From a virus (taxonomy: Duplodnaviria; Caudoviricetes), in the IMG/VR virus record IMGVR_UViG_3300037502_003070, positions 1-57,075 of that record: DNA of 57,075 nt, one strand, 5' to 3'. Under the pieces are notes generated by a model. The model was not told where the DNA came from. It ran no database searches and saw only the letters and a program-made list of their open reading frames with translations. Below, piece after piece: positions 1-26,091 of this stretch. The translations under genes and the position numbers were made by a program. Position 1 is the first letter of the stretch. Every line of letters begins with the position of its first letter.

Positions 1-718
1 GCCCGATCATACTTGCGGGCGATCGCACCGACGCGAAATTTATTCGCAAGCGGATAATCCGGGCACCGATCGTCGTTGATTCCGACGAAATCGGCCCCGA
101 TGAATTCGGCATACCGCCTGAACCGCGGCCAAGTGATTTTAGATAGGTCGATCGCCTTTTGGCCGGTGGCGACGGAAACGACTGCCAGGGAGTGATTCGG
201 TTCGGCCGGCGGGTCAAGGCTGAACGCAATCGGGACGGTATCGGGTGTCTGTTTTTTGGTCGGGTGGCAAACTGGGCACCGTTCTAGCCCCTTTTCGCTG
301 AACACACTGGACCCGCATTGATCGCAGTTCCACCGCACCCGCAGCCATCGACCAGCCGGACAGCGTGCCGTTGGGATCTCGACCCCGACGTGTATTAGGC
401 ACGGCCGGTCGGGCTGAATTGTCTTCAATTCCATGCAGGCGCCGCCGGAATTGCTCGGGCATCGCTCGCAAATCGATTCGCGGTCGATTTGATACGCGAT
501 CGGTCCGGGCTCGCACTTGTGGCGATAATTCGGGTAAGCCGCCCGGTATGCCCCGCAGTCCGGGCAGTGAAAATCAATTCGGGCTTTCGTCGGAACCGCC
601 TTTGCGATTTTTTTTCCGCTGATTTCCTCGATCGCTGACCGCCGAGCCGTAACACCCCTGGCAGCCCCGCCAATCTGGACAAGTTCCGGCGACTCCGATT
701 TCCTAGGCGAACACCCCA

Positions 719-9845: not shown

Positions 9846-10354
9846 TATCGGCCCCTCGGAAGTCTGCTATCTGGTACGGGAAAGTATCGGCCCATTCGGA
9901 CCGTTAAATCGTTGCGGTTTTCCAGGTCAACGACGGAAGGTCCGCCGATATCAATTACGCTTGCGTCAATTACCGACGGCAAGCCGAAAACGTTTTCGCC
10001 CCGCATAAGGGCCTGAATTGCGTCGCGGGAGTTCTTTGTCAGCCGGTCAATCATGTCGCCATCGGCGGCCTCGGGACGACGCTGATAAAGCGCCGCCATC
10101 GCCAAGCCGCAGACGATCCGCTTTAGGTGCGACAACGCGCCGCCGGTCAATCCCGAAAGCTGGCTGACAGTGTATCGACCGCCGGCCAGCAGTGCCGCCT
10201 CGACCTCCCCGGAAGCATCTTCAAGGGCTACCGCCACTTTGGTTGACGTAGCGACCAAATCGCGATCTTGCGTCGCTCGATCGTCGGTCGCTAAGTCTCC
10301 GATCAGATCGACATCGTATCTGTCGATCAGGTCTTGTCCGGTTGCGTAGGCCAT
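9845..10354 (-). CDS. Head-tail connector, Mu gp36/DUF1320-like
   Basis: N-terminus MAYAT..DLIDRY and motif ALEDASGEVEAAL..GRY; directly follows the capsid gene. Confidence 0.8.
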   Translation of the reverse strand: MAYATGQDLIDRYDVDLIGDLATDDRATQDRDLVATSTKVAVALEDASGEVEAALLAGGRYTVSQLSGLTGGALSHLKRIVCGLAMAALYQRRPEAADGDMIDRLTKNSRDAIQALMRGENVFGLPSVIDASVIDIGGPSVVDLENRNDLTVRMGRYFPVPDSRLPRGR

Positions 10355-10387: not shown

Positions 10388-11443
10388 TCAGGCCGTGATT
10401 ACGTCTTTAAAAACGAATCCCGACGCCGAAGCGGTGATTACCGCGTCGAAATCGTCAACGACGTGACCTTCAAGCCGACGATGCTTTTCGTCCTTGAATT
10501 CCTCGACGGTCATTTCCTCGTACATGAAGAGACAGCACGTCGAAAAATTCGGGCCGTTTCCGGCCGGTGCAACGAGCGAACCAGGGCGGGCCATCAAGTA
10601 GGCACGACCGGGAGTTGCCACGAAGCTTCGAGTCGGGGACGACGCCCCACGTCGGGAAGTGACCTTGACGGTATCCTCGACTACCACTGGGTAGCCATAG
10701 AGTTCGTCCGGCAAGCCGTATTGGCTCCATCGGCCCGCCTGACCCTTCACCTGAGCGTAGGCATCCGGCGACCCCTTGATATGGTCGACGATTTCTTGGC
10801 ATTCGCTGATCCGGTGGGCCGTTTCAACGTCCAGGACGAGCCTCAAGTCTTTCTTCCGGACAACCGAAAGCGTCGATTTGAGGATCACTTCGGCCGCGTA
10901 ATTCAGCGACCGCTTGATATCCTGCCTCGCAACGGTCGAAGCGTCCCACGGGCCGGTATTGCCCGAAATATCGTCGACGGCGATAACGTGGCTCGATTCC
11001 CAGTTCGAATCGTTCCCCAAAATCGCGTGGACACGGGCCGTCCTGGCCGTCATGGCCTGTTGGGCTTTGATGGACTTATGCGTCTCGCTGATCGCCCAAT
11101 CGGCCTGTTCGACCGACTTATTTCCAAGCTTGTACGGGTAATCGTATCGCTTGGTGAAGTAATCGAGGTAACCGAAGCTCTCGGTACCGTCATTGTTTTG
11201 CGGCCGATCGGCACCGTCGGGCCAAACGAATTCCGCCAAATCGGTACTGAGAATCCGACCGGCTTCCTCGGTCGTGACCTTCAGGTAAAACCCGCGATCT
11301 TTCGAAACGGGCTTAAGCTGAATGTAGCTGTTCAGCGGGAATTGATCTGGGTTTCGGCTGAAACCGATCACCAATCCGCCAGTCGCCTCATGGTCGGGGA
11401 CGTAAGTGTTCGATTGTCCCGGACGCACAAAAGTAGTGGTCAT
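10388..11443 (-). CDS. Major capsid protein (HK97-fold)
   Basis: 351 aa; between decoration and connector genes; LPDELYGYPVVV motif and C-terminal GFVFKDVI. Confidence 0.85.
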   Translation of the reverse strand: MTTTFVRPGQSNTYVPDHEATGGLVIGFSRNPDQFPLNSYIQLKPVSKDRGFYLKVTTEEAGRILSTDLAEFVWPDGADRPQNNDGTESFGYLDYFTKRYDYPYKLGNKSVEQADWAISETHKSIKAQQAMTARTARVHAILGNDSNWESSHVIAVDDISGNTGPWDASTVARQDIKRSLNYAAEVILKSTLSVVRKKDLRLVLDVETAHRISECQEIVDHIKGSPDAYAQVKGQAGRWSQYGLPDELYGYPVVVEDTVKVTSRRGASSPTRSFVATPGRAYLMARPGSLVAPAGNGPNFSTCCLFMYEEMTVEEFKDEKHRRLEGHVVDDFDAVITASASGFVFKDVITA

Positions 11444-11543: not shown

Positions 11544-12272
11544 TCAGGCGAGGACCGGTGTGGTCGCTGCACCCGTCGCAATGTTGAGCCGTTCGACGAC
11601 CACCCATTCCGCGCCGTCCCAAACGAGCCGAACCCGGTCGCCGACGTTGCTGAACGTGATCGTGGTCCCGTCCTTCAGGTTCGCTGGGGTCAGGGTGCCG
11701 TCCCCACCATCGACTACCAGGGTGATAATCTTTTGTTGGCCGACGCTTGTCCCGTTGGCCAACGTTCCGGCATCTGCGCCGGTCGTCGTCCAGTTCGTCG
11801 AGAAGCTGGTGACGTTGATTGCACCCGCACCGGAAAGCGACTGAACGGCGGCAGTCAGAACGCCATCGAGACCGTCACCGGTTACGACGCCGGCCATCAC
11901 GGTTACCTTGCAGTTCTGATCGACAACGCAAGCCGCATCGGCGATTGCCGAATAGGCTTCGCCAACGCCGGCGACGACGGCTTTTCCGTTGGCATCGGGC
12001 TTGAGCTTGTCACCGGCGGCGATCGTTCCGCCCGCAACGACTTCGCAGGGCATCCCCTCGGTATAAACCAAGCAGGATTCGCCGGTCAGGGCCGCTTGGG
12101 CCGTGACGCCCGGCAGGGGAGCGTATCGCGTTCCTTCGTAGGAAACGCCGACTGCCAGGTCACCGGCCACGGCTTGAAGGATCCCCATATCGGTTGCGGT
12201 GTCCCGCTTGACGAATCGCGAGGGGAGGATCGTGCCCCGCGCGATGTAACTTCGTTGGCTATTGCCCGACAT
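11544..12272 (-). CDS. Capsid decoration/cement protein (DUF2190-like) with C-terminal extension
   Basis: VVAGGTIAAGDKLKPDANGKAV motif; located between scaffold and capsid genes. Confidence 0.75.
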   Translation of the reverse strand: MSGNSQRSYIARGTILPSRFVKRDTATDMGILQAVAGDLAVGVSYEGTRYAPLPGVTAQAALTGESCLVYTEGMPCEVVAGGTIAAGDKLKPDANGKAVVAGVGEAYSAIADAACVVDQNCKVTVMAGVVTGDGLDGVLTAAVQSLSGAGAINVTSFSTNWTTTGADAGTLANGTSVGQQKIITLVVDGGDGTLTPANLKDGTTITFSNVGDRVRLVWDGAEWVVVERLNIATGAATTPVLA

Positions 12273-12332: not shown

Positions 12333-14021
12333 TCAGTGGCCGCCCATTTCTTCCTGGGCGAGCTTTTTGGCTTCGCTGTGGGTCAGCTTCCGGCCGGCCG
12401 CCAAGGCTTGCGTGTAGACCTCGACGGTTCGCGCCGCCAAGTTGGCCTCATATCGCTCGGTTTCGACCGATCGCGATCGCTCGGGGAACACACCCTGGGG
12501 GATCATCCCCGTCGCGACGGGGGCCTTTGCGGCGTAGTGTTCAAGTTCTTCCAGGTGGGACGCGAATTGCTCGTCATCCATCTGGGATCCGGCCGAATAA
12601 AGGCACTTCGAGAATTCCCGATCGGGCTCGATGAAATGCGGGTATTGGTTGGCCAATTCATTGATCGACGCCCGGCGGTTGGCGTCGGCCTCTCGCATCC
12701 GAACCTCGGCGAACCCGCGACGAAGGGCGGCGTGTTCTTCGAGCAATTCCCGGTGGCTCGACTCAAGGGCCGAATATCGCTCGGAAAGTTCCTCGTTCTG
12801 CTCGGCAATCGCCTGATATTGTTCGCGACTCATTTCGTCTTCCCCCTCGGCGGCGCCGAATCGGTTGGTCATGTACTGTTGATTTTGCTGGGGCATTCCC
12901 ATCCCGCCGTAGGGCATCATGGAGCCGGCCCCGTACTTCGGCCCACAAGCGAACTTGTCCGATTCATCGGGCTTTCCGCCCATTCCCGGCGGCTGGCCCA
13001 TCCCTGGCGGCTGACTCGCGGTTGGCTGGCCCATTGCGGAAGTGGCCGGCGGCGGCTGGGCTCCCCCAACTGCGCCGGCGCCCACCGGCGCGGCTGACCC
13101 TCCCATACCGCCGCCGGCTGGCTCCATTTCCCCGCTCTGCATCATTTGGCTGAGGAATTGAAATTGCGGCGTGCTTTGGATCGCTTCAAGAATTTGGGTA
13201 ATGTCTTCGGGGGCTAGCATTTTCGCCTTCTCCGGCTGCGTGGGTGGGGTTCCGGTCGCGTACTCGTCGCGGTCGTCGTCGTCGGTTTCGCCCGGTATGT
13301 AGGTGTTTCCGCCGGGGAGGGCGGCGACGGCTTCGTAGATTTCCCGGTGGCCTTCGGCTGCGTCGAATCCGTACTGAACCGGAAGCGGTAACCTGGGGGC
13401 TTCCGAAAGGGCGGCGATCGGGTCGATATACGAACGACCATTTGCCCGCAGGGTCAAAACCTCGACGGACCGGCGGGGGCGATCGCGGAAAGTGTGCGAC
13501 TCGTCTCGGCGGCGGTGCTCGTCACCGAATAACGCAAACCGGGGGCTGACCCGGCCGATCATGCCGATTCGGAACGGGCCGGCGAATCCGATCGTCCTTG
13601 GCGGGATCGGGTCGCGCTTCCCGCTCGGGAGGGTGTGCTTATCGACGATCGCGCTGTATGCGTCGGTGTCGGCGATTCGCAGGTTGTTTTCGCGGACGAT
13701 CGACTTAATCCGCTCGATATCGTTTTTCTTGACGATTTCGGCCCCGGTTTCGGGGTCGCGGGTCGCGGTTTCGTGCTCATGCCACAGGCAGACGTTCCGC
13801 CGACATTCAAACTGTTCCGGCGGGAAAACTGCCTGAGCCCGTTCGGTTTCGGGGTCGCCAAAACTTGCGTCACAAGCCTCCCAAACGACTTGGTTTCGCT
13901 GTGCTGGATCCGGGAAGATCGCCATCAGTTCCCGATGCGCGCGGACCGTGTAATCTTCGCGGGATTCACCCGGAAGCGGTCGCGGCGCGGAAACTGGGAG
14001 TCGTGCGATCATTTGGTCCAT
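12333..14021 (-). CDS. Prohead protease-scaffold fusion (Mu gpI-like)
   Basis: RRSVE..IAAL..P protease-like motifs, Gly/Pro/Met linker and coiled-coil C-terminus; synteny. Confidence 0.7.
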   Translation of the reverse strand: MDQMIARLPVSAPRPLPGESREDYTVRAHRELMAIFPDPAQRNQVVWEACDASFGDPETERAQAVFPPEQFECRRNVCLWHEHETATRDPETGAEIVKKNDIERIKSIVRENNLRIADTDAYSAIVDKHTLPSGKRDPIPPRTIGFAGPFRIGMIGRVSPRFALFGDEHRRRDESHTFRDRPRRSVEVLTLRANGRSYIDPIAALSEAPRLPLPVQYGFDAAEGHREIYEAVAALPGGNTYIPGETDDDDRDEYATGTPPTQPEKAKMLAPEDITQILEAIQSTPQFQFLSQMMQSGEMEPAGGGMGGSAAPVGAGAVGGAQPPPATSAMGQPTASQPPGMGQPPGMGGKPDESDKFACGPKYGAGSMMPYGGMGMPQQNQQYMTNRFGAAEGEDEMSREQYQAIAEQNEELSERYSALESSHRELLEEHAALRRGFAEVRMREADANRRASINELANQYPHFIEPDREFSKCLYSAGSQMDDEQFASHLEELEHYAAKAPVATGMIPQGVFPERSRSVETERYEANLAARTVEVYTQALAAGRKLTHSEAKKLAQEEMGGH

Positions 14022-14026
14022 AAACG

Positions 14027-14071
14027 AAAAAAGCCGGCGGGCTGCAGGATTTCTCCCGCGGCCCGCCGGCT
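14027..14071 (-). terminator. Intrinsic terminator-like hairpin just upstream of the protease-scaffold start
   Basis: 11-bp stem AGCCGGCGGGC/GCCCGCCGGCT; U-tract on the - strand ends 5 nt before the ATG. Confidence 0.7.
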
Positions 14072-14121
14072 CCGTTTTTCGGTTGCCTAGTGGCTGTTTG
14101 GTGGTGGTCTAGTGGTTGGTA

Positions 14122-14337
14122 CTATAGCGACTTTTTATCAATGTCGCCAAGTATTTGAGTTTTTTCGGTTGCGATTTTCGACAATCGGATTTTCCCGTGC
14201 TGGACTTGGAGTTCAAGCCGCGCGGAAAAAAACTCGTTGATTTCAAGCTGCGACCGGATCGTCTTTGCGAATTCGGTCAGGACGCTGAATATCAACGACT
14301 CGTTTTCGTCTTTCGCCATAGCTCGATTGTCGGTCAC
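14122..14337 (-). CDS. Small protein, YezD/DUF2292-like
   Basis: 71 aa; LELQVQHGKI..EK pattern; ATGA overlap with the 2128-aa gene. Confidence 0.5.
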   Translation of the reverse strand: MTDNRAMAKDENESLIFSVLTEFAKTIRSQLEINEFFSARLELQVQHGKIRLSKIATEKTQILGDIDKKSL

Positions 14338-17300
14338 CTGATCGCCTGAGTCAATCGAGGACGAAACGACCCGCCGGGCAAACCCACCCTGGCGGAATAT
14401 CGCTCGGCGACCGCGAATCGGCCGGCAGAGAACGGAACGAAATCATCGTCCTGCTGGCGTTCCTCCCGTTCCTCTTCCCATTCGGACGGGGTGCCCATTC
14501 GCTCATAATCCGATCGGTCCCATGCCGCGTCGATAACTTCCGGCGAATCCTTGGCCAGTTTTTCGGGGATCCCGTCGCGTAGAAGTGCGAACAAAGCCCC
14601 TTCGACATCACCGCCAGCCCCCTTCATTTTCGGGGCCAGGATATGCGGATATTGCCGCTGTGCAAACTCGGCCATTTGGTCGAATCGGGAGATTTTGTCG
14701 TAATCGCGGGCGGCTTTCACTTGGTTGATAAAAGCCCCGGCATTTCGGCCGTAACCCGCAAACGCCATTATTTCACGGATCGCCGACAATCGATCCTGAG
14801 CGTCGGAATTCATTTCTGAGAACGTCCGATCGACGATTTTCTTAAACTCCCGAACGTCGGTTGGGTGGTCGCCGATTTTCTCGACGATCGCTTTTTCTAG
14901 CTTCGTCACGGGTACGAATTTCTTTCCGCCAGTCGCCTTGGCCTTTTTGCGGGCCGCCTTGGCCTTTTCTTGGCTGTTGTCGGTGCGATATTCGCCGGTT
15001 TCCTTGATTCGCTTGACGCTGCCAGGGAGGAATACACGACGGGCCTCTTCGCCTTCGCCGACGGTGATGAATCGGCCCCGATCGCCGTAGGTGCCGGTCG
15101 TGGTTTTCGGCTTCTTTTCTTTTTTGGTGGCCCCTGATCCGGCTCGATACTGTTCGAGGAATCGATCGATTTGGTCGGCCGAAAATTGTTGCTTGTCGTC
15201 GCTCGCCTTGGCGGTCCTGATTGCATCGGGAATCCACCGATTTTGATTGACGTGCCCAAGTTCCTCATTTGATCGGCTGTACGTTTCCTCCATCCATTTC
15301 GCTGCGTCCCTTAACTGCTTTCGAGTAAATTTCCCGTCAAGCTGCGCTCGATAAGCGTCCATGCCTCGGTTGGCGTACCCGTTGCGGTCGTAGCTTGTCT
15401 GGCTACCGTCAACTTTGAGCGCTTCGGCGATAACTGGGCCGCTCGGGTGCTTTTTCAGGAAATCGTTTACTTGCTTCAGTCCTTCCTGCCCTAGTTTGGG
15501 CTTTTTAATTCCCATCGCTTTTTGGATGGCTTCGGCTTCGTAAGACGCTCGCTTAAACAGGTCGGATTGCGGCAGGGGCATTTCCTCGCCCGCCCCGTCT
15601 CCACCAAACATATCCCGTTGCCCCGGAAGCGACTTCCGGCTTTCGGCTCGTTTCTTTTCTTCTTCGTCAATTTGCTCAAGCAGACTTGCCGACGGTGCTT
15701 CACCCTTCCTGGCTGCCCGCTGATCGGCCTTGGTCGGTCGAACCATGTTGAACAGCGACTTTTGGCCGGTGTTCATGTCATCGCCGCCGAATAGCGACGC
15801 CTGTTGACCGGGGACCATTTCGGGGGTGAAGGTTGACGGGGCGGGAGATGGGGCGGGGGCGGGGGTGGGCTTAGAGCCCGCTTGTTGCTTACCGCGATCA
15901 AAGGCGGCGCTGGCCGCGTTGGCAATCTTGTCGGTAACGTCCCCACGGGAAACGGCGGAATTGATCGCGGAATCAAAGCCCTTTTCAAAGTCTTTGGCGG
16001 TCAGTTTCCCGGCAGTCTGTAGCGCCCGACCGAGATAAAACTTTCGTATGTCATCGTCCGAGTAATTGTTGATTTTTCCGGTTTCGTACCAACTTGAAGA
16101 CGATTCCTCGCCCGGCATTTTTTGCCCGGACGCTTCGCGGATCTTGCCTTTCATTGCCGATTGAGCGAACGGATGGGCGGGGGCGGGCTTCGCGGTCGCG
16201 GGCTCGTAAACCGTCGGGAGACCATTGGCTGTCATTTCGTCGGCGGTGCCCTTCCGCTTGGTCAGAACGCCTTTACTGACAAGCGATTCGAGCGTTTGCC
16301 GCTGCTGGTCGGTTAGGTTTCCGCTGTCCCATTCGCCCTCCTTTGCGACTCGGCTTTCGTAGCTGCTCGCTTTGGTATTTCGTTCCGCTGTCGCATTCTT
16401 GACGACAAACTTTTGCCCGCGTTTTGACTTCAATTCATCGAGCATTTTTTCCGGGTCGCGACTCCCGCCGGCCGCCAGCGAGAATGCGTCAACAAAACTC
16501 ACCTTTCCGTTGTTGACGATCGCAACGCCATCTTTCCCTTTGGTGGCTGCGTTTACCTTGGAAATGTCGGCGTCCGATACTCCGATCGACTTCAGGTGCG
16601 ATTCTAGCCCGTCGCTGGCGCCCGCACCGCTCCCCGGCGCATCCGGATTCTGCCACTTGCTGACCGACTTGATATCCGTGCGGTGGTCCGGGTTCTTCGC
16701 CTTGGCTGTGTCGTTGATCGCGAACGTCACCCCGCTGTCCCGGTTCACTTGCGGCTTGCCATTGATAACCGGATGGGCAACCACGGTTCCAAAACGTGAC
16801 TTGAAAACCTCGTACTCCTGGCCGGTCGAATCGGTGAACCGGTCGCGGGCTTGCAGGTCGCCGGCTTCGGGTGCGGTCGCGCCGCCCGTCCCGGCTCCCG
16901 CCGACTCAAGGTGATTGAAATACTTCATTTCGGTCGGTGTCAAAGCGATCGAGATTGTCGAATCGCTTGGGTCTATCAATTCGTTGCCTTCGCCACGAAT
17001 CCAACCCTCCCCCTGAAGCGTTTCGACAAACTCTCGTTTTGTCATTACGTCTCCGCGATACCGCTGAAGTTTTTCAAGGGCTGCTTTCGCCTTTCCAAAT
17101 TGCATCGGATTGTCTTTCATAAAGCCTTTGAACGCATCGACAGATTCTTTTTTCTTGGCTGCCTCTGCGGCTGCCCTGGCGTCCTCTTTTGCGGACGCTT
17201 CAGATTTCTGCCTGTCCCGTTCTTTGCTAAATCCCGCGCTTTTGAGCGCTGATTCTTCGGTGTCGTGTATTTCGTCACCAAGAAGCCTATCTGCCGGCTC

Positions 17301-20300
17301 GGTTTTGACCATGAATTTCTTGCCGGACTTGTAAACTGAATTGACGGGAATCGACTTGTATTCGTCGATTGTTTTTGGCTCGGGGTAATTTTCGCGACTG
17401 TTCGCCTTCTCGCCGCCCGCCGCCTTCCCGCCCCCGCCAATCTCCCCAATCTTCATTCCATCGAATTTCCCGCCCATCCCCGCTTTAATCGTCCCATCCT
17501 TCTTATCGATCATCACGGGTACGCCTTTGGAGTCCGGTCCGTTCGGTTTGACGGTGATCCAATCGAACATTTGCTGACCAGGGGAGGACTTAACCTTTCT
17601 GGCGGCGTACTGTTCGACGGATAGGCCGAAAAGTTCCGCCATGAATCGATCGACTAGGGAGTCGGCGGCGGAATACTGGGAGGATTCGCTGAATTTCATT
17701 TTTAGCAAGCTTTCCGCGCTTTGTTTTGCTGCACTTGTCAACTGCCTTTGCCATGCCTTGTTTGATGGCGACCACCGCCACCCCGACCGTTTCAGGCTGT
17801 CGATAACCGACCGGTCCGGCTTTTGATCGTGAATGATTCGGATTCGATTGTCGGCGTAATCCATCTTGACCGACCCGCCGTCGAATTCGAAATCGGTTTT
17901 CTTTTCGCCTGATTCGGCTTTCTTGGCTTCGGCTTCGAATTTCCCCTGGAGGGCAATCTGTTCGCGAACTCGCTTCATGTTCGCGTTGTTATTTCGTAGT
18001 TCGAAATCTGCGATCCCAAACCGACCCATAAAATCTGGCTTTAGGGCTTCCCTTGCTGCGCTTTCACTGACCCCGGACTGTTCGACAATCGCCTTCACGG
18101 CCGATTCAAGGTCGTACCCCTTTTTGAAAACTGGCCCATTTCGGCCGCTAGACTTGTCTAAGATTTTGCGGACCGCCGCATTAAGCTTCTTGGCCGATTC
18201 TTGGAATTGCTCAAGCTTTTGAAGTTTCGCTTCGAGAACATTTCCGGCCCCCGCGTCGCCGATTCGCATCGGGGCGTCTTCCGGGCTGATTTTCTTCATT
18301 ACCGCATTGCGACCCTTTTTTAACTGGTCGAGGTAATCTTGTGCCCGCTGATCGGCGGCCCTGTTGGCCTTTTCGTTTCTGGCAACTGGGAATCGCGCCG
18401 GCCCGGTGATCATCGGCGAAACAACCCGTCCCATCGCCGACAACATCGCTTCATAGGCGGACTTGGACCGCCTTACAAACTCTGGCCATTCCTGCTCAAG
18501 CGTCGCTTTTTGCTCGTCCGTTTCGGCCTTTTCGCTGAATTCGCGATAGGCTTGATTCATTTCGTCGTAAAACTCTTTTTGCCTCTGCTTGGCTCGTTCT
18601 TCTGGCGAAAAACTGATTCCAGCATGAGCCCGATAGGCCAACTCCCGCGAAATCATTCCAAGGCTGACGCCGGGGGCTACGGTTTCGGCTTTCGGCGCGG
18701 GCTCTTTTTTCTCCGCGGGTTCGGCTGGCTTGCTTTCGGGCATTTCGGCGGCTGGCGGTTCCTGCTGCTTCGGCGCGTCGTCTTGGCTTGGCCTGTTGGC
18801 CTTCCCAATCTCCCCGATTTTCTGCCCGTTAAACCTGCCACCCATCCCGGCGGCGATTGTCCCGTCTTTTTTGCTAATCATCACCGGTTGACCCTTCTCA
18901 TGCCCTGGAGGATGAACGGTGATCCATTGAAATTCCATCTGTCCCGGCGACGATTTGAGCCGGCGTTGGGCATACTGTTCGACGGTGATCCCAAGGGCCT
19001 GGGCCATGAATCGATCGACCCAAGCGTCAACGGCCGAATACTTTCCGCCGACTTCTTTCATGAAATCGTAAATCGACTCGTCGGCTTCCGATTTTAGGTC
19101 GGGACGCAATCGTCCGATTTCGTCCGCGACAAATTGAGCGGTTTCGGGGTTGGGGGTCGATTCAACCAAGCGGGAAACGTCGGATTTCCGAAGCGATTCG
19201 ATCGAATCGGCTGCGATTTTGACGTGGTTCTTGAAGTTAAATCCCTTGGGGGGCTTGGGTGCCGATAGTCGCTTTACCGCCCTCGGAGTTTTTTCGTAAT
19301 CGGGGTGCCAGTTGTCAATCGAATCACCCATCACAAACCGCTGTAATTCTTTTAGGGTAGAGTCTTCGGCGCGTCCGCGATTGACGGCCCAAACTAACTG
19401 CCGGGCTCGCTTGTTCTTTTCTTGGTCGCCACGCTCAAAATAAATTCGAAAACCGCTGTTGGGCTTGTCCTCTCCGTTTGCTTCGCCTAGCTGGATATAA
19501 GCTTCGTTGCGAGTCGTGGCCGATTCGCCGATCGACGCACCAGAAACAATAATCCTTTGCTCTCCCCTGTCAGAGTCATATCCGACGGTCCAGGGGATCA
19601 TGCTCGGGCTCCTTTCGCCCTTTGTTTCCTGCTTATTCTCTTCGCTACCAAGTTTGGGAAGCTCGTTATTCCTTCGGACTTCGTGCGGCTCTCGATCCTT
19701 GTTTTTATAGTTCTGTCTCAATCTCCAATGATTTGACGCAATTTCAAACGGCCGTTCTGTTGCGTCCATTTGCTTGTCGATCTTTTCGACTTCGCTTTTG
19801 TCTCCGGTGTACTGCCATCGACGCATTAACTCGTCCCGCTTTTTACTTAGGTCTTGCAGGATCTTTCCGGCAGGGTCGGCTGCTTGTTCCTCCGCTTCGC
19901 TTTTCTTTCTTTCGCGAGTCTTAAATGCTTTTTTTCCTGCCTTGCTTCGCCGCTCAAATTGCTCTTTTTTTCTTTTTGTCCCCAAATATTCCGAAAGCTC
20001 GTCTTTCGTCATTCCTTTGAGAAAGTCATCGTATGCCTTGAAACTTTCGGCCGTGTTTCCTGGGTATTTTTGCTTTAGCTCTTGATACTCTGATTCCATT
20101 TCGTCGTAAGTTCGCCGTTCTGGTTTCTTCGGCGGCGGCGGAGATGTTGGCCCGCCCGGCGGTCGTTCCGGCTTCGGTTCCGTTCTTACCCGAGCCGCCG
20201 CCCCGCCCGCCACTGAACCTTCCCTGGGTGCAAACTGCCCGCCCTCACCCGTCCCGGCCGGGTGCCTGGGGTGCGATTCTTCGTCCCATAGCGACTTTTG

Positions 20301-20720
20301 CCGGGCCGATGTCCTGAGCAGGTTCGACTCGGTGGCCGGATCGTCCCACAGGGATAGCTGGCCAGGGGAGTTACGTGCTCGGCGTCGTTCGTACTGCTCG
20401 ACGGTCAGGCCAAGGGCTTCGGCCATGAAGCGGTCGACGATAGGATCTTGGTCGCTAGCGGATTGCGGATCCTGAAAAGCGGAATAAACCTCGGCCGGCG
20501 AATGGTTGAAAGTGTCGTCAATAACAACTTTGCCATTCAGTAATTTGTTGACCTGATCCGCGGCCCACCTGATCGGGCTTCCTATTTCAGCGCCGGCCAT
20601 GCGAAGCGATCCGATCGAATTGGCGACAACGGAAAGCAGCTTTGGCCCCGCCCATTGACCAGTTTGGGCATCCAGCCCGATTTTTCCTTGCGGCGTTTCG
20701 ATAGTTGCCAGAAATTTCAT
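14334..20720 (-). CDS. Giant modular (polyvalent-like) protein, probable capsid-internal cargo
   Basis: 2128 aa; three VDRFMA..EQY..SPGQ repeats, HPR..GGQF motif, two WITV modules, DUF3560-like block at ~17700-18660. Confidence 0.75.
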   Translation of the reverse strand: MKFLATIETPQGKIGLDAQTGQWAGPKLLSVVANSIGSLRMAGAEIGSPIRWAADQVNKLLNGKVVIDDTFNHSPAEVYSAFQDPQSASDQDPIVDRFMAEALGLTVEQYERRRARNSPGQLSLWDDPATESNLLRTSARQKSLWDEESHPRHPAGTGEGGQFAPREGSVAGGAAARVRTEPKPERPPGGPTSPPPPKKPERRTYDEMESEYQELKQKYPGNTAESFKAYDDFLKGMTKDELSEYLGTKRKKEQFERRSKAGKKAFKTRERKKSEAEEQAADPAGKILQDLSKKRDELMRRWQYTGDKSEVEKIDKQMDATERPFEIASNHWRLRQNYKNKDREPHEVRRNNELPKLGSEENKQETKGERSPSMIPWTVGYDSDRGEQRIIVSGASIGESATTRNEAYIQLGEANGEDKPNSGFRIYFERGDQEKNKRARQLVWAVNRGRAEDSTLKELQRFVMGDSIDNWHPDYEKTPRAVKRLSAPKPPKGFNFKNHVKIAADSIESLRKSDVSRLVESTPNPETAQFVADEIGRLRPDLKSEADESIYDFMKEVGGKYSAVDAWVDRFMAQALGITVEQYAQRRLKSSPGQMEFQWITVHPPGHEKGQPVMISKKDGTIAAGMGGRFNGQKIGEIGKANRPSQDDAPKQQEPPAAEMPESKPAEPAEKKEPAPKAETVAPGVSLGMISRELAYRAHAGISFSPEERAKQRQKEFYDEMNQAYREFSEKAETDEQKATLEQEWPEFVRRSKSAYEAMLSAMGRVVSPMITGPARFPVARNEKANRAADQRAQDYLDQLKKGRNAVMKKISPEDAPMRIGDAGAGNVLEAKLQKLEQFQESAKKLNAAVRKILDKSSGRNGPVFKKGYDLESAVKAIVEQSGVSESAAREALKPDFMGRFGIADFELRNNNANMKRVREQIALQGKFEAEAKKAESGEKKTDFEFDGGSVKMDYADNRIRIIHDQKPDRSVIDSLKRSGWRWSPSNKAWQRQLTSAAKQSAESLLKMKFSESSQYSAADSLVDRFMAELFGLSVEQYAARKVKSSPGQQMFDWITVKPNGPDSKGVPVMIDKKDGTIKAGMGGKFDGMKIGEIGGGGKAAGGEKANSRENYPEPKTIDEYKSIPVNSVYKSGKKFMVKTEPADRLLGDEIHDTEESALKSAGFSKERDRQKSEASAKEDARAAAEAAKKKESVDAFKGFMKDNPMQFGKAKAALEKLQRYRGDVMTKREFVETLQGEGWIRGEGNELIDPSDSTISIALTPTEMKYFNHLESAGAGTGGATAPEAGDLQARDRFTDSTGQEYEVFKSRFGTVVAHPVINGKPQVNRDSGVTFAINDTAKAKNPDHRTDIKSVSKWQNPDAPGSGAGASDGLESHLKSIGVSDADISKVNAATKGKDGVAIVNNGKVSFVDAFSLAAGGSRDPEKMLDELKSKRGQKFVVKNATAERNTKASSYESRVAKEGEWDSGNLTDQQRQTLESLVSKGVLTKRKGTADEMTANGLPTVYEPATAKPAPAHPFAQSAMKGKIREASGQKMPGEESSSSWYETGKINNYSDDDIRKFYLGRALQTAGKLTAKDFEKGFDSAINSAVSRGDVTDKIANAASAAFDRGKQQAGSKPTPAPAPSPAPSTFTPEMVPGQQASLFGGDDMNTGQKSLFNMVRPTKADQRAARKGEAPSASLLEQIDEEEKKRAESRKSLPGQRDMFGGDGAGEEMPLPQSDLFKRASYEAEAIQKAMGIKKPKLGQEGLKQVNDFLKKHPSGPVIAEALKVDGSQTSYDRNGYANRGMDAYRAQLDGKFTRKQLRDAAKWMEETYSRSNEELGHVNQNRWIPDAIRTAKASDDKQQFSADQIDRFLEQYRAGSGATKKEKKPKTTTGTYGDRGRFITVGEGEEARRVFLPGSVKRIKETGEYRTDNSQEKAKAARKKAKATGGKKFVPVTKLEKAIVEKIGDHPTDVREFKKIVDRTFSEMNSDAQDRLSAIREIMAFAGYGRNAGAFINQVKAARDYDKISRFDQMAEFAQRQYPHILAPKMKGAGGDVEGALFALLRDGIPEKLAKDSPEVIDAAWDRSDYERMGTPSEWEEEREERQQDDDFVPFSAGRFAVAERYSARVGLPGGSFRPRLTQAIR

Positions 20721-23290
20721 ACCATCCCCTTTACTGCCGCAATCGTATAGTTGAAGTGGTTCTTGTTGAATTTCGCAAAATAGTATGCGTTTTCGTACAA
20801 AGACTGCAAACCCATTGAAAGGATTTCAGTTGAGTCGTTTCCGGGGTAATACTTCCCCGTGTACGCATTTTCAAATCCGTTTTTTGTAGCTACTTCGTGG
20901 GTTGAGTAGCCATTTCCTAAGTGCTTTACTGGTTGCTCAAAAGTTTGCGAATGCAAAAACGCCCTGGAGGTTCCCCCGATCTTGCCTTCGTTTGAGTGCT
21001 CGATTGCGTGGCCAATTTCGTGAATTATGACAGATGTGCCGGCGTGAGGCGCAAGAAAAACAGTGTCGCCGCTACAATGGCTCCGGCCGTCATAGTTGGG
21101 GTGATTCGGGTCCATCGCCTTAAATTTAATCTTTCCGATTGAAAGACTTGGCGAAATTATAGACGAAAGCCAGTTAATAGCTTCCGAAACATCAGCTTTT
21201 TGATTTTCGGGAAGAGACTCGACCCCTTCGGTTTCTATTTTAATTTCTCCGCTTTCTCCGATTTCTTTTATCAGGGCGGAAAACGATTCTTTTCTAATTG
21301 ATTCTTCTATTTGATAAACAGAATCCGAACGGGCCTTTATCTCTGCTCCTATCCTATCCATTTCCAATTCATTTCCGCTTCTTGAAGCAGCCGCCCAAGG
21401 ATCATAGAAGCTATCTATCTCCTTTTCCATTGAAGTCTTTTTATCATATAACTCTTTTGTAGCCGAAAGCCTCATCTCGACTAAAGATTTCCTATAGTGC
21501 TCGATTGCCGCGTTTGCGATTTGAGATATTTTCCTGCCTTTTCTGGCACTTCTTCTAGTCGCTTCGCTTTTATTTTCTTTTTCCCACGTCTTGACTGAAT
21601 AATTTCTGTCCGCCCGAACCCGGAGAGACTGCGGGAGCCAGTCTGAATACATATAATCGTCAAGCGCTTCGTCGCCTATTAAGTCTGGATTCGATTCAGA
21701 TGCTTTTCTAACTAAATCTTTGTGTTCGTCTTGAAGCTTATAGTCCCATCTCATTTCTGCCAGATCAGAAGGAAATTTGCCAAGCCTTGATAGGGTTTCT
21801 GCAAGATTGGATAAATTTGTAAATTCAGAAGCTTTTTCTACTCTTGAAAACATGGACTTAAATCCGTGCATGTTTTCTATTTTTTTAGCTATAGAATCCG
21901 CGTCTCCCCATCTTTTTTCACTAACAGCTTGAGCGTACCGGCTGGATATTTCGTAAAATCTTTTGTAATCCTTTTCAAAAGATTTAATTTTGTTGGCCTT
22001 TTCCCTTACCATGTATTGAAGAGAACTTATTTCTTCTGGCCTTTTTTTATTTAATTCGTCAAGGTTTTTTATTACACCCAAAACGTCATTTCGTGATTTT
22101 TGAATGTCCCATTCTTTTTGAATTTCTTCTTTTGCGCCAAACCTTCTTTTTCGCTCTTCTAGGTATTTGTTCCAGGCGTTTTCCTTTATTTGCAAATCTT
22201 CGCTTTCGCTTTCCTGCTTATATTTCTTGTAAAGCTCCGATCGGGATTCCTCTTCCTTTTTTGTAAAAGACGGCCTCTTGTTTTCTTTTTGCGGCCGAAT
22301 ACTTCCTATTTTCTGTCCTTTCAGCGCCGGCGGTCCCTTTGATATTTCGCCATTCCCTTTCACGAAAACCGGCGTCCCGCCTTTTTCTCCTTTCGGGGCT
22401 TCTTTGTTCGAGCCTATGGTTATCCATCGGCCGCCCTCGGTGGCTTCGTACATTTCGGCAAATCGGGCCGAAAACCGTTCTTCCGGTTTCACCGGTTCGA
22501 ACAGCTTCGGATTCGGCTTGAGTTTCGCGGCCAGAATCCGGGGGATCATGTTGTTGTGCAAAATGAACGGCCGGATATCGACGCCCTGCTGCCGGGCCTC
22601 TTGGATCATCGCCGCAAGCTTTCCAAGGTGATTCGCGACCTGCTTCGGGTCGACGCCCGGAACCGCTTGGGAGGTCTGCCGAACCCCTAGCGCGACAAGT
22701 TTCGGATCGACCCCGCCGGACTGGGTGTAGCCGCCCCACTGACGCGCCGCGGCTTTTCGGATCGAGTCGGAGAGCGTATCGTCGGGAGACGGCTCGAATT
22801 CCTGGCCGGACTTGGCCGCTTTCAATCTTCCCTCGGATTGCCTCGATTCGTGGGCTGATTTGGCCCCCTGCATCGCTTGGGCGATCGGCTGGACAATCGC
22901 TTCGGCGTCGTTCGTCCAGGCGATCAAGGGCCGCCGGATCGCTTCGGGGAGATTGGAGTAGTGGAGGGGGTGGGATTTGCTGCCAGGGGTGGGTTCTTTG
23001 ACTTCGCCGGTGGACTGGACGGGTTTTTCCTTCGTCTTTTCATCTTTTCCCGCCGGCGCCGCCGGCCCCGGTGTCGATTTGACCGGGCTTGGCGGGCCGG
23101 TGATTTTCTTCCCCGTCCGGCCGATTTCGCCGGAATTGGTTAGGAAAAACTGCTGGCCGCCGTCGCCGGTGACGTATCGGCCGCGGTCGCCGAATTTCCC
23201 GGTCGTTTGGCCATCGGCGGCTGCCGAAAAACGGTCAATAATCGCCCTGGCAGTAAAAGCGGCCACAATGTCGCGAGCATTGATTATCAC
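20717..23290 (-). CDS. Modular protein with C-terminal zincin metallopeptidase
   Basis: 857 aa; HEIGH at 21008-21022 plus downstream TEILSMG; WITI module; AT-rich C-terminal two-thirds. Confidence 0.7.
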   Translation of the reverse strand: MIINARDIVAAFTARAIIDRFSAAADGQTTGKFGDRGRYVTGDGGQQFFLTNSGEIGRTGKKITGPPSPVKSTPGPAAPAGKDEKTKEKPVQSTGEVKEPTPGSKSHPLHYSNLPEAIRRPLIAWTNDAEAIVQPIAQAMQGAKSAHESRQSEGRLKAAKSGQEFEPSPDDTLSDSIRKAAARQWGGYTQSGGVDPKLVALGVRQTSQAVPGVDPKQVANHLGKLAAMIQEARQQGVDIRPFILHNNMIPRILAAKLKPNPKLFEPVKPEERFSARFAEMYEATEGGRWITIGSNKEAPKGEKGGTPVFVKGNGEISKGPPALKGQKIGSIRPQKENKRPSFTKKEEESRSELYKKYKQESESEDLQIKENAWNKYLEERKRRFGAKEEIQKEWDIQKSRNDVLGVIKNLDELNKKRPEEISSLQYMVREKANKIKSFEKDYKRFYEISSRYAQAVSEKRWGDADSIAKKIENMHGFKSMFSRVEKASEFTNLSNLAETLSRLGKFPSDLAEMRWDYKLQDEHKDLVRKASESNPDLIGDEALDDYMYSDWLPQSLRVRADRNYSVKTWEKENKSEATRRSARKGRKISQIANAAIEHYRKSLVEMRLSATKELYDKKTSMEKEIDSFYDPWAAASRSGNELEMDRIGAEIKARSDSVYQIEESIRKESFSALIKEIGESGEIKIETEGVESLPENQKADVSEAINWLSSIISPSLSIGKIKFKAMDPNHPNYDGRSHCSGDTVFLAPHAGTSVIIHEIGHAIEHSNEGKIGGTSRAFLHSQTFEQPVKHLGNGYSTHEVATKNGFENAYTGKYYPGNDSTEILSMGLQSLYENAYYFAKFNKNHFNYTIAAVKGMV

Positions 23291-24747
23291 GGAGAATAAA
23301 CCTGAGAAAGTGAAGCGCTAGCCGCGTTCGGCGTGGTAATCCGAATCTTGGCGATCGTCCCGTTCTGCCGCGCGAACGAAAGGTCATATTCCTGTTCGCG
23401 ATACAACATTAACTGAGCTAATCCCGTCGAGTCGGTCACGTCCTCGATAACCGCGTTGACCGCCATCGTCCCGGATGCTACCGACCACCCGGCCGGGAAT
23501 CGGGCTGTCACGGTCACCGATTCGAACGGGCTCCCGGATTGCTTGGCGACGTAAACCGAAAGCAAGCATTGAGACGGCGACGGCGGGGTCGGTGCGGGGA
23601 TCGCGACTAGGGTTTTCGTGACCGTCGCGTCGGCGGCGACTACCAAGGAAGAATCTGCGACGGGCTGGTATCCCGGCGGGGGTGTCGTTCGAAGTGTGTA
23701 GGTATCGGCGTCGAGATTGATCACCGCGACACCCGACGAATTCGAGTAAACGACCGTTGACGTTCCGACGATTGAAAATTTCGTCGCGGGGACGGCACCG
23801 CCGGCCGAAGTGGCTACCAGGGTGATTGCGTAATCTCCCTCGCCACCGCCGCCGGAAGGGGCTTGAGATAGTGCCGTCGATTTCCACCGCCAGATGCTTG
23901 AGACGAATTCTAGCATTGTCGATAGAGCGTAGACGACCAGCCCCATCGATCCGGCCGTGGCTGAATATCCACTGACCAAGGCGGACCAGACACCAGACAC
24001 GATTGCCGCAATGGCGTGAACGTGACTGTTTGCATCAATTTGGATCTTGTCGCCTGCGGTCGGTGCTGATGTTAGCGGTTCTTCAATCGTGATCGTCGAC
24101 GTGCCGTCGCCATTATTTACGTAGGTTAAAATCGGACTGTTTTGGTTCGCAATCGTCGCATCTTCTGCAAAACTTAAAATAGAGTGTTTAAAAGCTCCTG
24201 TCGGGTAATTAACCCCGGAAATATTGAAAGCAGTCGTTGTTGGAGTCGGGGACGCAAGAACGGTGCCTTCGACCAGCAGATTACTTTTTCGAATCGTGTC
24301 GAGATTTTTGCCGGTCGAATGAGCAGACAGGTGATCGCGGTTATCCTCGTCCCACACAGCATCGGCAATAGATCCGCGCTCGCCAGTCGTCAGCGAATAG
24401 CCCGCTTTGTCGCTGTTTGCCACAGTCGTTACCGCAGGGGCTCCGACCTGTTGAACGTCGGGGATGATGACGTAATTCGCGAGCGTTCCCTCAATTGTGA
24501 GCCGTGGAGTCGCTGACGCATACGCATCATTAGGGATCGCGATCTCGTAGGATCCATCTCCTACGTCGGTGTAGTTTGGCGTGGGCGCATTGACGATCGT
24601 AATCGTCACCGGCGACGATCCTTGCCGCTTGTACTTGATGGTCGCACCGTTGCTGTGCAGCAACAAACCAGGTGCAGGAATACCCCCGTCATCAAGTATT
24701 CGGATCGTCGCCAGATTGCCGGTTGAATTAACAGATCGCAGACTCAT
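23287..24747 (-). CDS. Virion fibre/appendage-like protein
   Basis: 486 aa, Thr/Ser/Ala-rich, IADAVWDE motif, Ig-like/carboxypeptidase-regulatory-like C-terminus. Confidence 0.55.
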   Translation of the reverse strand: MSLRSVNSTGNLATIRILDDGGIPAPGLLLHSNGATIKYKRQGSSPVTITIVNAPTPNYTDVGDGSYEIAIPNDAYASATPRLTIEGTLANYVIIPDVQQVGAPAVTTVANSDKAGYSLTTGERGSIADAVWDEDNRDHLSAHSTGKNLDTIRKSNLLVEGTVLASPTPTTTAFNISGVNYPTGAFKHSILSFAEDATIANQNSPILTYVNNGDGTSTITIEEPLTSAPTAGDKIQIDANSHVHAIAAIVSGVWSALVSGYSATAGSMGLVVYALSTMLEFVSSIWRWKSTALSQAPSGGGGEGDYAITLVATSAGGAVPATKFSIVGTSTVVYSNSSGVAVINLDADTYTLRTTPPPGYQPVADSSLVVAADATVTKTLVAIPAPTPPSPSQCLLSVYVAKQSGSPFESVTVTARFPAGWSVASGTMAVNAVIEDVTDSTGLAQLMLYREQEYDLSFARQNGTIAKIRITTPNAASASLSQVYSP

Positions 24748-24748
24748 A

Positions 24749-25567
24749 TCACACCCCCATCACAGCCGCATGGCTCGCGGCGAAAATTGCCAGCGGGTTC
24801 GACGGAAACGCAAACAGTGCGGGCTGTGGTGCCGGCGTCAACATGCCACCGCGGCCAATTTGGTAGAGTTGTCTAGCTTCTGCGTCCGAAAGTGATCGAT
24901 TCCAAACTGCGTTTTCAAAAATACGACCACTTCCTGGAATGTCGGACAAAAATTGTGATGTTCCCATTTGCCAACTCGTCATAGCACCGAGAGTCGAGGG
25001 AATTATTGAAATGAAACCTAGCGTTACGCTCGCACCATCAAAATATGCCCTGAGTTTTTCAGCATTTGTTAATTTTGACCCGTCGTACACTACTACTAAA
25101 TGATGCAAATTTAAATCGTTACTAAAAAGCGTAGCGAATGAGTTATTTGCACCGTTGACGGCTGTTATGTACACAACGCCGTCCGAAAAGACTAACGTGT
25201 TAAAACGAATATTTTGCCCACTGACACCAGCACCAAACATTGGTCCATTGGTCGATACCGAAGTGCGTCTAAACCATGCAGAATACGAGGCATTAACAGC
25301 ACCGTTGAAAAACGTCCAGGGCACATTAACAACATCGTTTGACCCGTCAAAATCCAAAGCGTAGCGGCCACCATCAACGACCCAATCTGTAGCCGCATCC
25401 ATGTTGGTCAGCGTGCCCCAGTTTGATGGGCCGCTAAGATCCGCTAAGCGTGTACCTGTGGGGCCGAGACACGGAGCCAAATAAAGACGAACACCTTCCC
25501 ACAGTTCTGGGTAGGCGCTCTGATCATGCGTCCCAAAATGCTCCCAGCTTGGCACGTCTACGATCAC
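24749..25567 (-). CDS. LamG/concanavalin A-like lectin domain protein
   Basis: ALDFDGSND, SYSAWF, HHLVVVYDG and WNRSLSDAE..LY motifs. Confidence 0.85.
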   Translation of the reverse strand: MIVDVPSWEHFGTHDQSAYPELWEGVRLYLAPCLGPTGTRLADLSGPSNWGTLTNMDAATDWVVDGGRYALDFDGSNDVVNVPWTFFNGAVNASYSAWFRRTSVSTNGPMFGAGVSGQNIRFNTLVFSDGVVYITAVNGANNSFATLFSNDLNLHHLVVVYDGSKLTNAEKLRAYFDGASVTLGFISIIPSTLGAMTSWQMGTSQFLSDIPGSGRIFENAVWNRSLSDAEARQLYQIGRGGMLTPAPQPALFAFPSNPLAIFAASHAAVMGV

Positions 25568-26091
25568 GCCCCGATCCTCCAGCGATGCGGGACAATCTCG
25601 ATCCGAGTCAAATTGCCACTCGCTGGTGAGCGGTTGCGAAACGCGACCGAGAAGTTGTTAATAATCATCGGAGCCAAGTAACGTCCAACTGGTTGGATCC
25701 ACCAAGGCCCTTGATAGAGCCTCGTATCCGCATCGTTGGTTGCGATCAGACTGTAGAACCGACCGCCAAATTGCCGCAGGTTCGCATCATTCGTCCCGCG
25801 AGTGTACGAGCCATCGGAACCGGTCAGCTTTGCTGGGAAACGCGTTCCGTCGTGCGACCAACCGAGATAGAGATCAACAGTCCCCCCCGCTGTTGGTGCG
25901 GTGCCAGTCTCGACAAATAGGTGAACAGCAAGCCACGGCGGAATGTTGGCACCAAGGTCAGCAAACTCACCCTGTTGCGCCGAAGTGTTTGCCAATCCGT
26001 TGACTGAAATGATCTTGCTCACCCCAGTCCCACCGGATGGACCCCAGACAATTGGCGTTTGCGGCACTAGATCAGCGTATGACGTTGGCAT
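25564..26091 (-). CDS. Hypothetical virion protein
   Basis: Start MPTSYA overlaps the upstream stop (TGATG). Confidence 0.6.
   Translation of the reverse strand: MPTSYADLVPQTPIVWGPSGGTGVSKIISVNGLANTSAQQGEFADLGANIPPWLAVHLFVETGTAPTAGGTVDLYLGWSHDGTRFPAKLTGSDGSYTRGTNDANLRQFGGRFYSLIATNDADTRLYQGPWWIQPVGRYLAPMIINNFSVAFRNRSPASGNLTRIEIVPHRWRIGA

Follow-up and report, generated by a model that had tools for sequence, protein, structure and literature searches.

Related systems of head-packaged proteins

Phage T4 loads its internal proteins and Alt into the procapsid core by means of a capsid targeting sequence, the gp21 prohead protease removes this signal, and the cargo is injected. Each of these separate small proteins carries one N-terminal signal, which is cut after L/I-x-E. 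Here we describe a gene region of an uncultured phage of Planctomycetes (IMG/VR record IMGVR_UViG_3300037502_003070; the window is the whole stretch analysed, 57,075 nucleotides (nt), apparently one entire contig), in which two adjoining genes encode proteins of 2128 and 857 amino acids (aa), named P0001 and P0002, and a third encodes a 562-aa protease-scaffold protein, P0003. P0001 contains copies of a two-part linker unit composed of a helical header of about 45 aa and a beta module of about 42 aa, the WITV module, and related elements occur in P0002. As far as the genes tell, a short signal, an assemblin-fold protease and injected cargo would be common to T4 and this phage. Unlike in T4, the signal is repeated inside polyproteins, has another sequence, resembles scaffold and is followed by a predicted folded module.

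Polyvalent proteins were predicted by Iyer, Burroughs, Anand, de Souza and Aravind (2017; PMC5512222) to be packaged, mosaic, processed by zincin-like peptidases, and injected. By their sequences, P0001 and P0002 appear to be members of this class. They match its description in the accessible parts of that article in being giant multidomain proteins encoded among virion genes, in their mosaicism, in the InPase, LPD1, ART and RadC domains of orthologues and module-sharing proteins, and in the occurrence of portal fusions. The preliminary description of this locus, made by eye from the sequence, had noted the kinship rightly, but it fell short in calling the proteins analogous to polyvalent proteins, as orthologues carry LPD1 and InPase. 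There are also differences. Iyer et al. invoke zincin-like peptidases, and the main text of their article, in its accessible parts, does not contain the word "linker". Here, in contrast, a linker precedes each cassette, its helical part seems to copy the phage's own scaffold, its beta part has no Pfam model, and P0001 and P0002 themselves are without any Pfam domain.

Among other described systems, DarB of phage P1 is a 250-kDa polyvalent protein located in the head, whose N-terminal 30 residues load a reporter (PMC9024508). It has a single N-terminal signal, unlike the proteins studied here, and the accessible part of that report mentions no repeated internal headers. No sequence similarity between DarB and this system was found; the profile phrog_10089, labelled "DarB-like", matched only the InPase part of a relative. 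In phages of the phiKZ/SPN3US type, the prohead protease processes many of the ejected proteins inside the head at a short motif, according to the accessible parts of two reports (PMC10052503, PMC7411985), but these are encoded by separate genes of jumbo phages and do not form cassette polyproteins in which a folded tag recurs. Effectors fused to MuF, as far as covered in the accessible text of PMC5512222, share the position after the portal and the attachment of variable effectors to a conserved head-incorporated domain, whereas the window contains no MuF domain. By analogy, the present system would work most like the T4 internal proteins or P1 DarB. What is new is that a two-part linker is repeated, that this linker derives, as judged from profile similarity, from the scaffold of the same phage, and that WITV is widespread beside head proteases.

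Our preferred explanation, for which we see about an even chance, is that the headers are head-assembly signals, namely prohead-protease cut sites and possibly also scaffold-like loading elements. We are equally divided on whether the region is a capsid-cargo system of the polyvalent kind, consisting of chains of cassettes, each preceded by a two-part linker unit. In such a system, the head-assembly machinery would read the header as scaffold, and the polyprotein would join the procapsid core, held by its C-terminal anchor. The prohead protease would cut at [DE][RQK][FY]x[AS] motifs, each freed payload would then begin with a WITV module, and the pieces would exit with the DNA at infection. 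Recombination within the conserved linker units would let related phages exchange cassettes.

Linker units and payload cassettes

The three open reading frames (ORFs) had been described as encoding 562, 2128 and 857 aa on the minus strand, which was confirmed. The stop codon of P0002 overlaps the start of P0001 by 4 nt, and the two genes form a translationally coupled pair. Their features, in window coordinates, are the following.

20717-23290, minus strand: P0002, 857 aa, putative polyvalent protein
14334-20720, minus strand: P0001, 2128 aa, putative polyvalent cargo polyprotein
20346-20486, minus strand: header copy 1 (aa 79-125)
20196-20345, minus strand: shortened WITV-like stretch after header 1, LSLWDD...LLRTSARQKSLWDEESHPRHPAGTGEGGQF (by-eye alignment with locus L005)
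19257-20195, minus strand: payload slot 1 (aa 176-488); relatives hold other cassettes, and the relative P0009 has a 40% identical copy
18801-19040, minus strand: header copy 2 (aa 561-598; 18927-19040) and WITV module 2 (aa 599-640)
17676-18800, minus strand: payload slot 2 (aa 641-1015), with a phrog_19458-type domain at aa 747-1007
17433-17675, minus strand: header copy 3 (aa 1016-1053; 17562-17675) and WITV module 3 (aa 1054-1096)
15837-17432, minus strand: payload slots after WITV module 3 (aa 1097-1628), four function-unassigned blocks that are present, absent or reordered in relatives
15597-15836, minus strand: conserved block with three GQxx[LM]F motifs (aa 1629-1708)
15186-15596, minus strand: cassette private to this phage (aa 1709-1845), between GQRDMF and SADQIDRF, ending ...QQF
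14337-15185, minus strand: conserved C-terminal "anchor" domain (aa 1846-2128) with a degenerate header, a GDRGRFITV module and the tail PFSAGRFAVAERYSA

The header has the form [KQ]YSA..VDRFxA..LG.TVEQYAA[RK]K..SPGQ..F, and the three-stranded beta module the form WITV...PVMI...GTI.AGMGGKF.G.KIGEI. The three headers previously placed near positions 20440, 19020 and 17655 coincide with copies 1 to 3, of which copies 2 and 3 run into WITV modules of 42-43 aa starting at aa 599 and 1054. The degenerate copies reported near the C-terminus are present as FSADQIDRFLEQY at aa 1846 and ERYSA at aa 2108. The stretch after header 1 aligns by eye with L005, in which the equivalent stretch leads into a full WITV module, and is read as a shortened form. 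Segment BLASTP within P0001, P0002 and P0003 aligned aa 545-632 of P0001 with aa 1000-1088 (57% identity over 89 aa, E 3.5e-32), aa 92-124 with aa 565-597 (64% over 33 aa, E ~1e-11) and aa 82-121 with aa 1010-1049 (52.5% over 40 aa, E ~3e-11). The DNA of the header copies is only 56-60% identical, and identical residues share their codon in about half of the cases (11/22, 11/20 and 12/23 across the copy pairs), indicating that the copies are old and have been kept by selection on the peptide.

P0002 starts with a leader containing the two-part motif FTARAIIDRFSA (aa 12-23), followed by a GDRGRY module and N-domain (aa 25-270), the header-like ERFSARFAEMYEA (aa 271-288), a WITI module (aa 289-335), a charged, coiled region and a C-terminal zincin. 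All the elements said to be shared with P0001, DRFSA, ERFSARF, the WITI module and TTG.[YF]GDRGR[FY], were found. When each protein was shuffled 300 times, the pentapeptide [DE][RQKH][FY].A was strongly enriched in P0001 (6 observed, 0.52 expected), P0002 (2 and 0.14) and P0003 (4 and 0.13), while the other 25 window proteins tested contained 2 in total. The six occurrences of the two-part form of the motif are all in P0001, P0002 and P0003.

P0001 and P0002 had no match in Pfam (E ≤ 0.1) or NCBIfam and only partial matches in PHROGs, and sequence searches of the PDB with P0001, P0002 and the P0003 profile returned nothing meaningful. The payload that had been called DUF3560-like has to be renamed, as it had no Pfam match at this threshold and aa 747-1007 instead match phrog_19458 (E 2e-31), a type of domain labelled "primase" in two cultured phages. 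When P0001 was compared by tblastn with 50,697 phage records, only aa ~720-1008 matched, in 11 records and at below 60% identity. In an AlphaFold2 model based on 53 sequences, the header is predicted to form two helices and WITV three strands; the mean predicted local distance difference test score (pLDDT) is 75. When this model was compared with 48,161 chains, residues 1-51 matched nothing more specific than helical hairpins (best Z 6.2), and the beta part was barely probed.

A word-indexed search for relatives found 10 other long proteins, and a HMMER scan with a header+WITV profile found 410 cluster representatives at E ≤ 1e-3. In distant polyvalent proteins, the best-conserved part of the header is the core E[QHR]YA[AK][RK]K..SPGQ..[FL].[WF] and not the upstream YSA, and the core is followed either by WITV or by PGQ[LM].[LM]FGDG...PLR[ST], which in L005 also leads into WITV. 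Pfam families were assigned to 30 relatives or module-sharing proteins: LPD1 occurred in nine, InPase in five (including P0009), and no family in ten, with ART-PolyVal, RadC, DarA_C and a Portal_Mu fusion as singles; SNF2 helicase and toxin-like domains were also found. Among the orthologues in phages of ~90% identity, P0004 and P0007 contain LPD1, and a 460-aa protein of L003 contains InPase, recognised by eye. The module-sharing polyvalent proteins P0010 and P0024 begin with a fused Mu-type portal domain, which places such cargo at the portal inside the head.

The preliminary description had named variable payloads among relatives as a check, and this comparison bore it out. Three viral contigs, L001-L003, are 90-91% identical to the window over ~10.86 kb, from the P0001 anchor through the protease, capsid and tail genes; within the cargo genes the identity persists only in patches. 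The patch ends at 20198, 19016 and 17403 fall where linker unit 1 stops, within header 2 and 30 nt beyond WITV module 3. Slot contents were read in seven related proteins (those of the window and L001, and P0004-P0008). Each of three slots (after linker 1, from WITV 2 to header 3, and after WITV 3) has three different contents, and the N-terminus has four states. At least eight blocks of P0001, which thus holds several unrelated domains in one polypeptide, are independently present, absent or reordered in relatives; in P0007, for example, aa 1113-1273 lie after the block of aa 1276-1368. In L003, an InPase cassette directly follows the DRFSA of the P0002 homologue and ends in SRYAA. From the joints of this cassette and of the private one, each cassette thus brings its own copy of an aromatic-small-small motif. 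These comparisons support the view of P0001 and P0002 as modular cargo proteins among the head genes, with payload cassettes that appear to be swappable between conserved linker units.

The positions of the patch ends, at or within linker units that are 85-95% identical in DNA between orthologues, would also fit conserved spacers that have no signalling role and serve chiefly as homology for cassette exchange between co-infecting phages. We regard this as highly improbable. The within-gene copies have only 56-60% DNA identity and share codons at about half of the positions, pointing to selection on the peptide, and WITV is kept across many phyla, in the 410 cluster representatives, often as the N-terminus of small proteins in which no cassettes are exchanged.

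The zincin of P0002 had been listed as a payload. Its presence was confirmed, as HEIGH lies at aa 757 within a match of aa 735-853 to phrog_33618 (E 7e-11), but its role as payload was not, since the domain may instead serve in processing, as Iyer et al. suggested. This leads to a different explanation for the headers: built-in zincins, at the P0002 C-terminus here and as LPD1-associated HEWGH in relatives, would do the processing, and the headers would be their sites or plain spacers. L003, which has no P0002-type zincin, does have an LPD1-type HEWGH zincin in its large protein, no other Pfam family occurs in as many of the module-sharing proteins as LPD1 (9/30), and zincin processing is what the accessible part of PMC5512222 proposes for polyvalent proteins. 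Nevertheless, we consider it quite unlikely that this explains the headers. It leaves unexplained why the header copies units of the protease-scaffold and why the same pairing occurs with another motif in another lineage (see below); in addition, Pfam MPTase/peptidase models did not match P0002, and 7 of 15 polyvalent proteins lack HExxH, though a neighbouring gene could supply one.

The block with three GQxx[LM]F motifs has a fixed spacing and precedes the C-terminal anchor in many polyvalent proteins. Together with the PGQxx[LM]F of the linker, it could be a beta-sliding-clamp binding motif that tethers payloads to the host clamp on the incoming DNA, a reading compatible with the others. Across 34 large module-sharing proteins, 65 copies of Qxx[LM]F were counted, about ninefold more than the 7.3 expected, and a Pfam scan of 43 window ORFs, a subset of all ORFs, revealed no DNA polymerase. 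The QLGLF, QMSLF and QLNLF of relatives fit the canonical Q-phi-x-[L/M]-[F/L], as given in the accessible part of PMC11139829. In the window, however, the QLSLW, QMEFQW and QQMFDW of the headers are off this form and only the QASLF of the triple block fits, and the PGQ..F stretch is predicted to lead into the first WITV strand, so that we judge clamp binding to be very unlikely.

The anchor domain had no usable match in the ESM Atlas. In many relatives the two-part motif is the extreme C-terminal tail of this domain. The anchor is the most conserved element beside this protease family, being found upstream in 10 of 17 more distant loci, and in ~930-aa proteins encoded upstream in L043-L049 it forms the N-terminal half, followed by a P0002-like zincin tail. 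Only five stand-alone homologues were found (281-465 aa, 79-96% identity); these were dismissed as they look like fragments, at least three of them lying on contigs of ~1-2 kb. The ORFs between the portal and protease genes had no MuF match in Pfam, PHROGs or NCBIfam, in agreement with the preliminary description. The anchor may be a functional counterpart of MuF; hhalign with four MuF proteins, a weak test, gave a probability of 0.1%.

The protease-scaffold protein and the header

P0003 is encoded downstream of P0001 and has the following parts.

12333-14021, minus strand: P0003, 562 aa, protease-scaffold
13398-14021, minus strand: N-terminal domain (aa 1-208), likely an assemblin-fold prohead serine protease
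13467-13469, minus strand: codon of S185
12336-13397, minus strand: junction, low-complexity linker and scaffold half
12747-12881, minus strand: header-like scaffold unit (aa 381-425)
12507-12641, minus strand: header-like scaffold unit (aa 461-505)

An indexed search found 67 homologues of P0003, of which the named ones are from Planctomycetes (Roseiconus lacunae and metagenome-assembled genomes of Planctomycetaceae). In the family alignment, which contains 57 of the 68 sequences, the serine of RRSVE (S185), pointed out in the preliminary description, is invariant along with H83 and H129, and Y229, A418, L474, Y475, F486, Y496 and A497 are at least 90% conserved. AlphaFold2 modelled the N-terminal domain (aa 1-205) confidently, with pLDDT mostly above 90. 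The three best structural matches covering this domain are capsid proteases, with Z-scores below the level deemed safe: T4 gp21 (Z 6.9, 117 residues aligned), varicella-zoster virus (VZV) protease (Z 6.3, 106 aligned) and herpes simplex virus 1 protease (Z 5.2). Because of these fold matches, the gene position and the invariant serine and histidines, we take P0003, with moderate confidence, to be an assemblin-fold prohead protease fused to its own scaffold. The same arrangement of protease and scaffold is known from gpI/gpZ of phage Mu.

P0003 was correctly stated to contain ERYSA, EQYQA, EHYAA and LYSA, and its homologues have equivalent pentapeptide motifs at aligned positions. A profile built from 41 header instances was run by hhalign along the 57-sequence alignment, divided into 53 sliding windows. 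The profile matched scaffold aa 461-515 (YSAGS..D..F..H.E..E.YAAKAP) with a probability of 89% and an E-value of 2e-6 over 30 columns, and aa 381-425 with 81%, whereas the protease-domain and low-complexity windows remained below 1%. The C-terminal helix-turn-helix of the scaffold (6%) and the protease junction (13-21%) were outdone by these two units and were not retained as matches. The shuffles, the alignment and hhalign thus agree with the claim that the header motif is common to the protease-scaffold family and conserved in it, and the hhalign matches indicate that, at profile level, the header probably copies two units conserved in the P0003 scaffold half.

The WITV module is also associated with a second, unrelated protease family. 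WITV occurs in genomes of many phyla (34 loci), in many small proteins as the N-terminus after a leader of ~10-35 residues, and no Pfam model describes it; a full-text literature search for its signature words and "phrog 25904" gave no match. In Pasteurellaceae prophages, the gene order is large terminase (TerL), portal, MuF, WITV protein, head maturation protease (DUF2213; PHROG label), cement and major capsid protein (MCP). The WITV protein and the protease are separate adjoining genes in Mannheimia (L009), while WITV is fused to the N-terminus of DUF2213-type proteases in Gallibacterium anatis (L031:7834-10293) and Enterobacter soli (L029:7971-9842). As far as these sequences go, the spread of this module, beside or fused to head-maturation proteases in other phyla, appears to be new here. 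A motif picked by eye, [SAVN][AV]MD, lies just before WITV in L009 and L008, is absent from this position in L006, and is not matched by the L031 leader, SYAMDD. Within the C-terminal part of the protease, L009, L008, L006 and L031 have one to three copies of the same motif, with two or three in the following proteases.

L009:9188-10444: DUF2213-type protease
L008:9275-10531: DUF2213-type protease
L006:9121-10362: DUF2213-type protease

The L009 protease contains three copies with 0.03 expected, and TerL, portal, MuF and MCP of the Pasteurellaceae prophages contain none. We regard [SAVN][AV]MD as a site at which DUF2213-type proteases may cut. WITV is also present in systems with other protease families, whose cargo and protease both lack the E.YAA-type motif. 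This pairing of a lineage-specific peptide with the tail of the cognate protease weighed most with us and suggests that the signal is read by the protease.

T4 gp21 cuts at L/I-x-E| and herpesvirus proteases at V/L-x-A|S. By analogy, a cut after alanine, [FY]-x-A|, would be at least as likely as the [FY]|SA proposed in the preliminary description.

It is also conceivable, though unlikely, that the header is a scaffold-mimicking loading element only, whose aromatic side would bind the scaffold core, the inside of the capsid or the portal, the whole polyprotein being co-assembled and left uncut at the headers. A protein of more than 2000 residues would then need to pass the tail uncut. The element shared in Pasteurellaceae is just 3-4 residues long, too short for a docking helix, and several copies per scaffold, as in T4 and phiKZ-like phages, are generally more typical of cut sites. 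Loading alone would, on the other hand, agree with the likeness to the scaffold over 30 columns, with the predicted helices of the header and the well-packed helices modelled for scaffold aa 399-499 (pLDDT ~86-98), and with the two-part motif at the extreme C-terminal tail of the anchor, where known loading peptides sit. The 30 residues that suffice to load a reporter in P1 DarB, as described in the accessible part of PMC9024508, are a precedent.

Several further observations weigh against headers as protease cut sites, some of them shared with the loading explanation. The aromatics of the header are ~10-11 residues apart and its resemblance to the scaffold extends over 30 columns, which fits a docking helix better than three separate cut sites; docking or loading may thus be a function of the header, either in addition to cleavage or in its place. 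In P0003 itself, ERYSA at aa 414 is within a long predicted helix, and the motif copy at aa 224-230 is modelled as a strand inside the range aligned with the VZV protease (model 70..239) and may be part of the fold rather than a substrate. The protease domain had no match in Pfam, PHROGs or NCBIfam, Foldseek alone gave nothing at E ≤ 0.001, and the Z-scores above are modest. The pentapeptide, the two-part form and all other motif patterns were defined post hoc, after the data had been seen, and the 41 header instances were chosen by a pattern fixing G, Q and Tyr. Neither the motif nor an evident propeptide is present in the 351-aa protein at the capsid position. Of the 17 more distant loci that have a P0003-type protease, only two gave a match of the upstream protein to the header hidden Markov model, and three gave a WITV match at E ≤ 1e-5, two of these apparently being the same phage; therefore, the scaffold motif exists without header-bearing cargo. 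In these loci, the strict pentapeptide undercounts headers, as looser forms such as VERFANSVADEMERYARTS before WVTI are missed. Finally, HExxH zincin sites in 8 of the 15 polyvalent proteins checked mean that another processing enzyme is at hand.

Gene neighbourhood and significance

The order of the head genes is TerL, Mu-type portal, cargo genes, protease-scaffold, putative MCP and Mu gp36-like adaptor, so P0001 and P0002 are placed between the Mu-type portal and the protease-scaffold fusion. The genes outside the cargo and protease-scaffold genes are as follows.

29856-31571, minus strand: TerL
27217-28824, minus strand: Mu-type portal, start of the head module (Pfam Portal_Mu, E 2.7e-31)
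11544-12272, minus strand: 242-aa protein
10388-11443, minus strand: 351-aa protein in the position of the MCP, with no family match and no header motif
9845-10354, minus strand: Mu gp36-like adaptor

The interval between the portal and the cargo genes (23287-26166) encodes three proteins of 200, 272 and 486 aa, a set that is also present in L005; the 272-aa protein has a lectin-like Laminin_G_3 domain and the 486-aa protein a weak S-layer-like match. The 242-aa protein weakly matches the PHROG "head scaffolding protein" (E 1.6e-9, aa 8-135). By eye it is rich in Gly, Thr and Val, unlike a helical scaffold, and a role in decoration is conceivable. Two genes upstream of that for the terminase, at 33291-34211 and 35276-35776, encode a matrixin-like protein (Peptidase_M10) and one in which a cytochrome c-like domain is weakly matched. 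The replication and modification genes, at 43353-45380, 46768-47556, 50043-51437 and 52318-54957, comprise a D5-like primase-helicase, a PolB-exonuclease-like protein, an N6/N4 DNA methylase and a RecD2-like helicase. There are no tRNA genes in the window.

A more far-reaching proposal, possible but doubtful on the present sequences, is that the linker is a two-layer capsid address code, in which a lineage-specific peptide copied from the scaffold would provide loading and cutting, the universal, folded WITV tag, left at the N-terminus of each freed cargo, would provide capsid retention or ejection, and the PGQxxLF exposed by the cut would be a clamp tether. If this were true, any protein behind a linker unit would be packaged, freed and injected.

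To our knowledge, polyvalent proteins are known only from comparative genomics. The combination of a header that copies the scaffold and a widespread tag offers a concrete, testable rule for their loading into the capsid and their processing, and a second protease family shows the same pairing with another motif. Should the rule hold, it would provide a handle for loading chosen proteins into phage capsids, and it would explain how phages can swap injected effectors as cassettes without losing their delivery.

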